Below are positions 9,489-11,238 of a stretch of DNA of 64,000 nucleotides, one piece after another. The first letter of the stretch is position 1; each line of letters starts with the position of its first letter. The notes under the pieces were generated by a model that saw only the letters and a list, made by a program, of their open reading frames with translations, had not been told where the DNA came from and made no database searches. This DNA is from a virus (Duplodnaviria > Heunggongvirae > Uroviricota > Caudoviricetes): IMG/VR virus record IMGVR_UViG_3300025861_000004, one strand, 5' to 3'. The position numbers and the translations under genes are program-made.

Positions 9489-10430
9489 TTACGTTAAAAA
9501 TGTTTGGGCCAAATGTCCAAGGTACATTAGTATCGGAAAACTCATCGTGAAGGCGCGAGGCCCGAGCGTGCCGCGCACGTAGGGGCCGAAGGCGCTCCGC
9601 ACGCCCACACCGAAGCGGGGCTGCTTGAGGCCCAGGATGTAGAGGGTGGTGCGGGTCTTCCCCTCGGCGGCCTTGTCCCACATGTCCTTGGCGTCCCCGA
9701 GCGCGCTCTGATACTTCGACGACTTCTCGATGGAGAGCGAGACCCCGCCGATCGAGTAGTCGAACTCGTCGGCGATCCAGTTGAGCATGACGGCGAAGAG
9801 CGCGTGGATCATCGCGCCCCACCGGATGCCAGCACGCCACCCAGGATAGCGACCCCAGACCTCGTCGATCGTCCGCACCTGGTCCGTGTTCGGCGGCACC
9901 AGCGTCCAGTCGTCGATCGCCGCCCGCAGGTAGAGCAGCAGCTCCCGGTCCTCCCAGATCTGCCCGAACACCCGGTCGAACTTCCCGACCCGCCCCTCGT
10001 GCTCGGGCGGCCGGAAATGGTAGAACTTGTCGGGTGAATTGGCCAGACCACCCAACCACCCGACAGCAAAGTTGCAGTGCGGAGGGACGGTGAGGTTGTA
10101 GACGTACTGGTCACGGTGCGACGGTTTCACCCACAGGACGCGCTGCGTGTCCAGGCGATCGTCACGGATGCGCAGCACGGTGTCTCCGCGCTTGAGGTCT
10201 GCGGCCGGGACGCGATCTGTGGGGGAGACGTAGATCTTGTGGTCGGCAGTGAGACGGCCAGGGCCTTGCTCGGTCGTCACCTCGACCATCTCGCGAGATC
10301 CGAGTGGAGTGCGTCCCACCCGAATGATGGGGCGCCACTCGATCCTCCCATCGGGTGCGATCGAGCGTATGCGCAGCTTGCCGGCATGGAAGGCGTTACG
10401 GATTCGGTTTGCGTCGGTGGGGGGGATCAA
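9489..10430 (-). CDS. Hint (intein-like / BIL-like) domain protein
   Basis: The N-terminal 130 aa carry Hint blocks: GRLTADHKIYVSPTDRVPAADLKRGDTV (block B, TxDH) and VYNLTVPPHCNFAVG (blocks F/G-like, VY.L.V...HNF.A.G). It starts at TTG. The last 20 codons (9489-9550) are low-GC, unlike the rest. Confidence 0.45.
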   Translation of the reverse strand: MIPPTDANRIRNAFHAGKLRIRSIAPDGRIEWRPIIRVGRTPLGSREMVEVTTEQGPGRLTADHKIYVSPTDRVPAADLKRGDTVLRIRDDRLDTQRVLWVKPSHRDQYVYNLTVPPHCNFAVGWLGGLANSPDKFYHFRPPEHEGRVGKFDRVFGQIWEDRELLLYLRAAIDDWTLVPPNTDQVRTIDEVWGRYPGWRAGIRWGAMIHALFAVMLNWIADEFDYSIGGVSLSIEKSSKYQSALGDAKDMWDKAAEGKTRTTLYILGLKQPRFGVGVRSAFGPYVRGTLGPRAFTMSFPILMYLGHLAQTFLT

Positions 10431-11238
10431 GGCCCAGTACCTCCTCGGTCCAGATCGCGAACTTCATGCCGCGGCGTGCGGCCTCCTGCTCGGCAACCTG
10501 GAGTCTCTGATGATACGGGTGATCATCGGCATAGCAGGTGAAGATGTACTTGGGCTTCACCTCGATGAGCGTTCGGGTGCCGTCGATCCAGGTGACGATG
10601 AAGTCCGGCATGATGTACTTGCCGTTCTCGAGCTCGAAGATCGGCTCGTACTCGAACGACAGGACCTGCGGGTCTGCGTCGAGCCGCTCGGCCGCTCGTC
10701 TCTCGAATGACGACCGGGTCGTGAACGATCCTCCTTTCTGGGTCGTGACGCGCTCCTTGAAGCCGTACGTCCTGTTCTGCCCCGCCTCCGTCTGGAGGTA
10801 GGTGATCTTCTTCAGGCTCATGCGGGCGCGCACCGCGGGCGTGTAGGCTGCCCGCTGCTTGGCGCGCTCCTCGTCCGAGTGGACCCTCCCCCTGTGGAAG
10901 TCGAATTTCCCCTCGGCCCACTGCTCCTTGAGCTGCTCGGTGAGCCAGGGCTTCTCCTCGCCCTTGCGGGCGGCGGCGCGCTCACGGGCGGGCTCGGAGA
11001 CGTTCTTCCGGCTCGCCTCGTTCCACATCGCGCCGGTGAGCCGCTGAATGCTGCCCTGGGAGAGCCCGGTGATCGCGACCATATCGGCCCACGAGGTCCC
11101 GGCCGCGTGGAGCTCGGTGACGAGGGCGCGGCGGCGCTCCAGGACGTGCGCCTTGTCGGGCGGGAGCCGGCCCTTGCGGTAGAAGTCGTCCGGGGTGAGA
11201 TCGTGGCGGGTAAGCAGGTCAGCGAGACGTGGGTCCAT
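10396..11238 (-). CDS. TnsA-like PD-(D/E)xK endonuclease domain protein with an N-terminal HTH region
   Basis: The C-terminus LDADPQVLSFEYEPIFELENGKYIMPDFIVTWIDGTRTLIEVKPKY matches the TnsA/restriction-endonuclease catalytic core (E...PDF...EVK). The N-terminus has HTH-like WADMVAITGLSQGSIQRL. Confidence 0.6.
   Translation of the reverse strand: MDPRLADLLTRHDLTPDDFYRKGRLPPDKAHVLERRRALVTELHAAGTSWADMVAITGLSQGSIQRLTGAMWNEASRKNVSEPARERAAARKGEEKPWLTEQLKEQWAEGKFDFHRGRVHSDEERAKQRAAYTPAVRARMSLKKITYLQTEAGQNRTYGFKERVTTQKGGSFTTRSSFERRAAERLDADPQVLSFEYEPIFELENGKYIMPDFIVTWIDGTRTLIEVKPKYIFTCYADDHPYHQRLQVAEQEAARRGMKFAIWTEEVLGLDPPHRRKPNP

Follow-up and report, generated by a model that had tools for sequence, protein, structure and literature searches.

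Two overlapping reading frames on the minus strand

A 64,000-nucleotide (nt) stretch of DNA from a virus of the class Caudoviricetes (IMG/VR record IMGVR_UViG_3300025861_000004), referred to below as the window, contains on its minus strand two overlapping open reading frames (ORFs), named here ORF-A and ORF-B. The data described below suggest that ORF-B represents the C-terminal half of a phage gene that has been fractured, that it begins with the larger fragment of a split intein, and that ORF-A encodes the homing endonuclease associated with it. ORF-A (10396..11238, minus strand) starts with ATG and codes for 280 amino acids (aa), while ORF-B (9489..10430, minus strand) starts with TTG, codes for 313 aa, and ends with the stop codon at 9489-9491 (minus strand). 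The two ORFs are in different frames and overlap by 35 nt; the overlap and the TTG start are as described in an initial annotation, which was made from the sequence alone. The TTG codon is the earliest possible start of ORF-B, with an in-frame stop codon located about 36 nt upstream. A Shine-Dalgarno sequence GAGGAGG (10440..10446, minus strand), read from the sequence, lies within the 3′ end of ORF-A and 9 nt before the TTG, so that ORF-B has its own translation start.

The sequence of the window is the same as that of an independent JGI assembly, with 100% identity across 20,843 nt, and it is 99.95% identical to a 331,503-nt contig of an ENA assembly. The agreement of the JGI and ENA data indicates that the arrangement of the two ORFs is not an assembly artefact. 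The AT-rich end of ORF-B, which had also been pointed out in the initial annotation, is real as well. The last 54 nt (9489..9542, minus strand), which encode a hydrophobic tail SFPILMYLGHLAQTFLT and the stop codon, have a guanine plus cytosine (GC) content of 35%, as compared to 66% in the remainder of ORF-B. Comparable low-GC tails were found in homologues from the related loci L008 (45% GC) and L010 (38% GC) and in the proteins P0005-7, P0009, P0010, and P0012, and the tail is absent from P0002-4 and P0008. A scan of this region of ORF-B for sigma-70 promoters found none. The gene directly downstream of ORF-B (9118-9450, minus strand; about 110 aa) gave a weak match to DUF551 (E = 0.01), and a longer alternative ORF at 9118-10059, which overlaps ORF-B, is otherwise spurious.

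ORF-B begins with the C-terminal fragment of an intein

The Hint blocks that had been noticed in ORF-B were examined by profile searches. ORF-B alone matched the Pfam family PF14890 (Intein_splicing) over residues 96-123 with E = 0.0037 and 17.5 bits, which is below the 35.8-bit cut-off. When a Hint profile built from ORF-B and 13 homologues was compared with solved structures, the best match was the Mja KlbA intein (2jmz, E = 8e-13), and thus the Hint assignment was borne out. Further matches were found to the Pho RadA intein (4e2u, E = 1.8e-7), to the Pho CDC21 inteins (6rpq and 6rpp, E about 5e-6), and to the Spl DnaX, PolII, TFIIB, and NrdJ-1 inteins (7cfv, 5bkh, and 8ubs among the structures). 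The match to a bacterial intein-like (BIL) domain (2lwy) was weak (E = 4e-4), and the best-scoring structures are those of true inteins. In KlbA, an intein of 186 aa, the aligned region begins near residue 56, which indicates that ORF-B does not contain the first part of the Hint domain, including block A. Consistently, block A with its Cys1 or Ser1 nucleophile was not found in ORF-B, while in related loci it is present on a separate N-terminal half (N-half), where it has the sequence C[VIL]GGEE... The absence of block A suggests that ORF-B contains an intein fragment and not a whole intein. A contiguous intein of the same family matched the PolII intein 5bkh end to end (E = 2.3e-5).

The intein profile match together with the alignment of homologues assigns residues 1-131 of ORF-B (10038..10430, minus strand) to the C-terminal fragment (IntC) of a putative atypically split intein. 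This part contains the block B sequence T61-A-D-H64 and the block F sequence VYNLTV..HCNF, and it ends with L-A-N131. The following residues 132-313 (9492..10037, minus strand), which begin with S132 (SPDKFYHF...), would form the C-extein, a helical domain recognized by its identity to homologous proteins. The residues expected to take part in catalysis are T61 and H64 of block B, the terminal N131, and S132 in the +1 position. T61 and H64 are invariant in the nine-member clade to which the window belongs, and the Thr, the His, and N131 are nearly invariant across the whole family. The open frame, the T-x-x-H motif, the terminal Asn, and the Ser or Cys in the +1 position are all kept in nine of nine clade members, at about 45-60% identity of IntC. 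All aligned intein-bearing alleles have Ser or Cys in the +1 position, while the intein-less ones have Asn there. Conservation extends to the N-terminal strands of IntC (I..AF..G.L.[IV].S), with which the missing N-terminal fragment would pair. The ratio of nonsynonymous to synonymous substitution rates (dN/dS) was 0.28-0.74 for IntC, with dS saturated in the pair that gave the highest value, and 0.03-0.13 for the C-extein. In the closer pairs the dS of IntC reached about five times the value of the neighboring extein, as would be expected of an intein moving independently between genomes. Overall, the conservation of residues supports a working intein fragment, which would take part in splicing.

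The host protein and its allele states

The protein that contains this putative intein was identified by comparing ORF-B with phage genomes. A tblastn search showed that residues 133-282 of ORF-B are related to gp319 (283 aa) of Tunturiibacter phage Tunturi_5 and to gp165 of Bacillus phage G, and that the entire ORF-B is 41% identical to an ORF in the unannotated 485-kb genome of an uncultured phage (LR745208.1; locus L002). In LR745208.1 three genes follow one another, coding for an N-half (165 aa), a homologue of ORF-A (347 aa), and a homologue of ORF-B (297 aa). The N-half ends with ...MLLRDQ↓CLGGEETVELDVEGERMIVRLDDLWETLEVNPG, while the C-terminal half (C-half) continues after its Hint part as ...HN↓CPDRDYHF..., where the arrow marks the intein boundary. 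Tunturi_5 gp319 has no insert and is uninterrupted at this site (...LLSDEDPDRNYHF...). Directly upstream of the N-half in L002 there is a 374-aa ORF (3405-4529, plus strand) with helix-turn-helix-like repeats and a ...SYLPDFWV... motif, which may encode another PD-(D/E)xK endonuclease.

The search of a protein database found 960 homologues of ORF-B in the intein-less, contiguous, and C-half states. The intein-less homologues are about 298 aa long and have the sequence LLRDQ↓NPDKFYHF in P0082, or LLRD(Q/N)↓NPDK(F/N)YHF when P0082, P0084, and P0099 are considered together; the C-extein of ORF-B is 55-65% identical to their C-terminal half. In the contiguous state a mini-intein of about 155 aa is contained in a protein of about 450 aa (P0085, P0071), with the pattern RDQ↓C[IV]GGEE...(H/S)N↓[CS]PDKFYHF. 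The C-halves similar to ORF-B are 296-320 aa long. A separate search for N-halves gave more than 400 proteins of about 165 aa, which end with an N-terminal intein fragment (IntN) of the pattern C[VIL]GGEE.VE.D..GE....L(W/Y). In more than 100 N-halves this IntN was 28-33 aa long and consisted of two strands and a helix. The intein is therefore split at an atypical position, after its first approximately 30 residues, into an IntN of 28-33 aa and an IntC of 131 aa. The host protein, of about 300 aa, is conserved in jumbo phages, and the intein is located between ...LLRD(Q/N/H) and (N/S/C)PDKFYHF..., as judged from the aligned alleles.

To compare the allele states, some 220 related loci, taken from IMG/VR and from metagenome contigs, were searched with hidden Markov models (HMMs) of the two exteins, of IntN and IntC, and of the ORF-A family. 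Among the 130 distinct IMG/VR alleles, 105 were intein-less, four contained a contiguous intein, two were split without an endonuclease, and 12 were split with an ORF-A homologue between the halves (11 complete and one truncated by the contig end), while seven were incomplete. In the metagenome loci that were retrieved with an intein-specific pattern the endonuclease followed the N-half in 13 of 16 cases, and the full order of N-half, endonuclease, and C-half was seen in nine of 16. The full arrangement is present in L002, L022, L052, L057, L059, L068, L072, L083, L087, and L217-L229. In some 25 independent loci the endonuclease and the Hint-containing part are without exception encoded by separate ORFs, which lie in different frames and either overlap or leave a gap of a few nucleotides.

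This last observation bears on the possibility that a frameshift, either a sequencing error or a programmed event, occurs in the run of seven C residues at 10420-10426, inside the 35-nt overlap, in which case the real product would be a fusion of the nuclease and the Hint domain. Such a fusion is highly improbable: three assemblies agree at the locus, ORF-B has its own ribosome binding site and start codon, and related ORF pairs differ in the length of the overlap or gap and in frame (e.g., L059, L221, and L002). The inteins of contiguous alleles, moreover, are without a nuclease domain. On these grounds the frameshift fusion was rejected.

The function of the host protein was approached by structure prediction. 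The AlphaFold model of an intein-less protein (predicted local distance difference test score, pLDDT, of 68) contained a confident beta-sandwich N-domain and a helical C-domain. A Foldseek search with this model against the PDB gave no match below E = 1e-3, and the matches above it were generic Ig-like ones and one weak match to a portal adaptor. There was no Pfam or PHROG family for the host protein. With neither a family nor a significant structural match, the label "head-tail connector" given to Tunturi_5 gp319 could not be confirmed.

Other variation was observed in the same gene. A second intein site has the pattern NW.ADEF↓S...HN↓SY.IGG (P0011, P0013, P0072, P0115; L028, L034, L038, L056, L070, L090, L124, L130, L131); the intein at this site is contiguous in some alleles, and in others about 1 kb of sequence precedes its IntC. 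In a third allele type, N-halves (P0338, P0353, P0359, P0362, P0367, P0370) end with ...NPDRNY↓S(V/I).G.E..., which is a Ser-initiated short IntN located six residues downstream of the main site. Additionally, in many loci (e.g., L020, L022, L032, L044, L052, L075, L116, L132) the beta-sandwich domain of the N-extein has a paralogue of about 105 aa, which is encoded upstream of the host gene at a distance of 0.1-5 kb and in some cases occurs twice.

ORF-A is a TnsA-like nuclease associated with the split site

The TnsA-type core that had been recognized by eye in ORF-A (SFEYEP...PDF...EVK) was confirmed by a match to the Pfam family PF08722 (Tn7_TnsA-like_N) over residues 190-265 (10444..10671, minus strand), with E = 1.2e-7 and 32.6 bits, above the cut-off of 26.5 bits; the homologue in L002 scored 39 bits. 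The catalytic residues of this PD-(D/E)xK nuclease core would be E198 (FEYEP), D212 (PDF), and E226 with K228 (EVK). In an alignment of 15 distinct homologues from related loci each of these four residues was at least 95% conserved. The helix-rich N-terminal region is also conserved among the homologues, and it gave weak PHROG helix-turn-helix matches over residues 32-70 (E = 0.02-0.1), thus it is probably a DNA-binding part of the helix-turn-helix type. A single-sequence structure model of ORF-A had a pLDDT of 50 and did not confirm the fold, and no sequence relation of ORF-A to solved structures was detectable. A relative of ORF-A is also present in Xanthomonas phage phiXF1, where its context is uninformative.

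Genes of the ORF-A family invariably occur where the intein is split: the window, L008, and L239 have such a gene, and L005, L010, L073, and L222 lack it. Within the clade of the window the endonuclease gene occupies the site in the window and in L008 and is missing from the same site in L005 and L010. Its placement between the halves in relatives, together with this presence and absence at one site, suggests that ORF-A is a free-standing homing endonuclease, which is predicted to cleave the empty allele.

The resemblance to TnsA could alternatively mean that ORF-A is a subunit of a Tn7-type transposase, with ORF-B containing a Hint domain of the BIL or pretoxin type in a secreted self-processing protein. 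This would agree with the TnsA-like names of the Pfam and NCBIfam models and with a weak PT-HINT match in one homologue (E = 0.0018). However, the score of ORF-A against the NCBIfam model TnsA_like_Actin was 19.7 bits, far below its cut-off of 110 bits, there was no match to the TnsA C-terminal domain, and no TnsB-, TnsC-, or TnsD-like genes were found among the neighboring gene families. The exact intein-less alleles and the conserved +1 nucleophile indicate a true intein, and the genomic context is that of a jumbo phage, which makes this explanation scarcely credible, the least probable of those considered. Both the BIL or secreted protein and the Tn7-type transposon were rejected, given the precise empty alleles and the lack of Tn7 partner genes.

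The N-half of the gene and the state of the locus

In the neighborhood of the window ORFs only the endonuclease and the C-half of the fractured gene are present. Upstream of ORF-A, in the opposite direction, there are a 100-aa ORF, a gene for a 306-aa protein, and a gene for a 1102-aa helicase. The counterpart of the 306-aa protein in L005 and L008 matches DnaB_C, and it gave no tblastn match to the window protein. The C-halves in L008 and L010 retain their downstream neighbor DUF7487, which is ancestral and was found in 87 loci.

Loci with other parts of the gene were found in high-GC relatives. L240 (25.8 kb, 68% GC) contains an N-half, which ends with ...LLRDH↓CLAGEEVVEVDADGQRLLVRLDDLYEATRDLQVP, together with the usual upstream neighbors, and neither an endonuclease nor a C-half was found within 10 kb upstream and 6.5 kb downstream of it. 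L239, which belongs to a sister clade (ENA ERZ12289978 NODE_9, 393 kb), contains divergent genes followed, at 9112-11789, by a TnsA-like endonuclease, a middle piece, and a Vsr-like endonuclease. The middle piece is 228 aa long and consists of the IntC of intein 1, 95 extein residues, and a short IntN of intein 2. Neither of the outer gene pieces was found within 10 kb of it, and the host gene of L239 appears from its sequence to be in at least three pieces. The Vsr-like endonuclease of L239 is 375 aa long and is followed by AT-rich non-coding DNA. The complementary loci of high-GC relatives, some with only an N-half and others with only a C-half, suggest that the locus was broken at the intein, and that the parts would be joined by trans-splicing. 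In the lineage of the window we consider it moderately likely that the halves are unlinked, with the N-half located elsewhere in a genome of more than 390 kb; the confidence in this part of the reading is not higher because the N-half was not found.

Several observations weigh against the proposed interpretation. The N-extein and IntN were absent from all six frames of the window and of 10 kb past each of its ends (L230/L232), about 84 kb in total, in tblastn and unfiltered HMM searches. Two protein searches for N-halves did not show that of the window phage among the matches listed, which in one of them were the top 120 out of more than 400. A scan of JGI and ENA contigs with a codon-biased pattern, which recovers the N-half of L240 and has an estimated chance of about 40-50% of missing a true N-half, gave 16 matches, of which 15 were intein-bearing N-halves in the usual arrangement and one was intein-less, and none came from the window phage. 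L240 is tied to the clade of the window only by GC content and complementary synteny. The gp165 protein of Bacillus phage G consists of the C-domain without the beta-sandwich N-domain, which suggests that the N-half is not strictly required for some function. Within IntC, Asn replaces Asp in block F (VYNLTV) and Ala replaces His before the terminal Asn, both of which are non-canonical, and the dN/dS of IntC rises to 0.74 in one pair, for which dS is saturated. Other searches for the N-half also had negative outcomes. The clade contigs L005-L010 had no match to the N-half HMM. When representatives at 50% identity were searched, divergent N-halves were returned, among which P0379 belongs to a canonical adjacent locus. 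Two scans of GTDB genomes found intein-less relatives only, and the clade of the window was not found in IMG/VR when this was scanned with ORF-B, with the alignment of the clade, and with the P0251 subgroup.

These observations could be explained if the N-half were lost and ORF-B were an orphan C-half, in which IntC is either kept as an N-terminal appendage or shed by Asn cyclization alone, and the C-domain works on its own. The lack of an N-half in about 84 kb, in the clade contigs, and in the metagenome pattern scan is expected in such a case, and gp165 of phage G is a natural homologue containing only the C-domain. C-terminal cleavage uncoupled from the first splicing step has been documented for an atypically split intein (PMC10189870), and the constraint on IntC is relaxed, as judged from its dN/dS. 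On the other hand, the block B Thr and His and the constant Ser or Cys in the +1 position serve the N-terminal steps and transesterification, and not C-terminal cleavage, yet they are kept in all nine clade members. The strands of IntC that would pair with IntN are conserved as well, and a matching class of unlinked N-halves is represented in a high-GC relative (L240). An orphan C-half is therefore unlikely, and unlinked halves joined by trans-splicing are favored over it.

A further possibility is that both ORFs are decaying remnants of a dead intein and endonuclease insertion, similar to the degenerated intein that was among the suggestions of the initial annotation. Consistent with decay, the endonuclease in L008 has an internal deletion relative to ORF-A, it is missing in L005 and L010, and the block F and penultimate residues of IntC in the window protein are unusual. 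However, both frames are open, the four nuclease residues and the intein Thr, His, Asn, and +1 residues are intact, and the dN/dS of the C-extein is low. A strong ribosome binding site precedes ORF-B, and the sequence is the same in independent samples. Given that the frame and the catalytic residues of the intein are kept in nine of nine clade members, decay is very unlikely.

Hence, we assign a probability of about 0.75 to the interpretation of ORF-B as the C-half of a phage gene that has been fractured, and of ORF-A as its homing endonuclease, as suggested by their sequences and those of their relatives. The view expressed in the initial annotation that a Hint domain together with an endonuclease is a signature of inteins and homing elements is retained, while its more specific readings are not. 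A degenerated intein disagrees with the conservation in the clade, and a frameshifted single gene with the separate ORFs of about 25 loci, the ribosome binding site of ORF-B, and the agreement of assemblies. An auto-processing secreted protein disagrees with the exact boundaries of intein-less alleles (LLRDQ↓NPDKFYHF) and with the existence of contiguous ones. The order of the genes was described there as unusual because only part of the unit is visible in the window.

Proposed mechanism and its significance

In many phages the gene of the TnsA-like endonuclease sits exactly at the split point of the intein, with IntN left on the N-half and IntC on the C-half. In the proposed mechanism, which follows standard intein chemistry, IntN would dock into IntC and complete the Hint fold. 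An N-S acyl shift at Cys1 would then form a thioester, and the N-extein would be transferred to S132. Cyclization of N131 would follow, and the exteins would be joined as ...LLRD(Q/H)-SPDKFYHF... As expected from the biology of homing endonucleases, ORF-A would cut intein-free or endonuclease-free alleles in co-infecting phages, and the element would be copied into them during repair. A break of the ancestral locus at the intein may have occurred in the high-GC lineage, leaving the endonuclease and the C-half beside divergent replication-type genes.

More tentatively, at somewhat below even odds, these elements may be combined into a single model. The protein of the high-GC lineage would be encoded in two unlinked pieces, or three in the sister clade, and rejoined by one or two orthogonal atypically split inteins. 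The TnsA-like nucleases would constitute a so far undescribed family of free-standing homing endonucleases, whose insertion after the first approximately 30 residues of a mini-intein creates natural atypical split sites.

The relevance of these observations is chiefly to intein biology and protein engineering. Natural split inteins with a short IntN are prized tools for protein semi-synthesis and labeling, and the family described here offers hundreds of natural pairs of IntN (about 30 aa) and IntC (about 131 aa). In some hosts a second, probably orthogonal, atypically split intein is present in the same protein. The coexistence of empty, mini-intein, and split alleles without and with the endonuclease suggests that the proposed origin of split inteins has been caught here at an atypical site, and the TnsA-like PD-(D/E)xK nuclease would be added to the GIY-YIG and Vsr-like types reported in 2009. 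For phage annotation, the data offer an explanation of a recurrent pair of "hypothetical" ORFs, and they also serve as a warning that an ORF which apparently starts in the middle of a domain may be half of a gene with a distant partner.

Other features of the window

The helicase gene upstream of ORF-A (12590-15898, plus strand) encodes a 1102-aa SF2 helicase-like protein with ResIII, DEAD, and Helicase_C matches. Its C-terminal part contains 6.7 tandem copies of a 210-nt (70-aa) unit with 94% identity (14450-15860), where the GC content falls to 0.53-0.57, and the ENA contig ends within this array. A gene for tRNA-Ile with the AAT anticodon (7897-7971, minus strand) is located about 1.5 kb downstream of ORF-B, and a phage transfer-messenger RNA gene was detected at 56024-56383 (plus strand; Rfam RF00023, 162.5 bits), with the tag peptide ANDNSVRLAA predicted by ARAGORN. 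A DDE_Tnp_1 transposase with a SWIM zinc finger (41144-42487, plus strand) is located in a lower-GC stretch at about 37-43 kb and probably represents an insertion sequence within the phage genome. Auxiliary genes typical of jumbo phages include those for a DnaJ-domain protein (940-1947), a nicotinate phosphoribosyltransferase (28616-30025), an SPFH/Band-7 protein (31043-32998), an M23 peptidase-NUDIX fusion (46227-47249, minus strand), and an N6/N4 DNA methylase (59532-60794).

Comparison with known systems

The most similar known systems are the fractured genes, in which split-intein halves flank a free-standing homing endonuclease gene, as in gp41-1, NrdJ-1, and IMPDH-1 (PMC2677866). The endonucleases of those genes are of the GIY-YIG or Vsr-like types, and the hosts are DNA-metabolism enzymes or terminase (PMC2677866). 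The relatives of the window locus have the same order of N-extein with IntN, endonuclease, and IntC with C-extein on one strand, often with overlaps; they are also phage-borne, and contiguous, split, and empty alleles coexist. They differ by the TnsA-like PD-(D/E)xK endonuclease (E..D..ExK), by the split after about 30 aa, and by the uncharacterized jumbo-phage host protein, and the window has no N-half next to its endonuclease and C-half. The inteins of the 2009 fractured genes reportedly have the canonical split site, so that IntN measures about 100 aa and IntC about 35-40 aa.

Natural atypically split inteins include AceL-TerL (IntN of 25 aa), GOS-TerL (IntN of 37 aa), and PolB16 OarG (IntN of 15 aa and IntC of 168 aa), and they have been called rare (PMC11766414, PMC10189870). 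The intein described here resembles them in its short IntN, its long IntC with most of the Hint fold, and its phage or metagenomic origin. However, those inteins are single rare examples in terminase or polymerase genes, whereas here, as known from sequence alone, hundreds of N-half and C-half pairs occur in one host protein, with an endonuclease at the split site. The IntN of AceL-TerL has a similar C-x-x-G-D/E...D-G...L-Y pattern.

If the N-half is located elsewhere in the genome, the system would also resemble the cyanobacterial DnaE, which is encoded by the unlinked genes dnaE-n and dnaE-c and joined by protein trans-splicing. DnaE differs in its canonical split site and in that both of its halves are known, while here the partner was not located; no endonuclease is known beside either half of DnaE. 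With TnsA of Tn7, ORF-A shares the TnsA_N-type catalytic domain with the E, D, and ExK residues, but it is without the Tn7 partners, free-standing, associated with a specific site, and located beside an intein. A PD-(D/E)xK homing endonuclease is already represented by I-Ssp6803I. A full-text literature search, the coverage of which was incomplete so that its outcome is absence of evidence only, found no paper that links TnsA-like nucleases with split inteins or describes this intein family. Hence, while the general fractured-gene arrangement was already known (Dassa et al. 2009, PMC2677866), the new elements are the type of endonuclease, the visible link of its insertion to an atypical split site, the extent of the family, and the unlinked arrangement and multi-piece genes suggested by the relatives.

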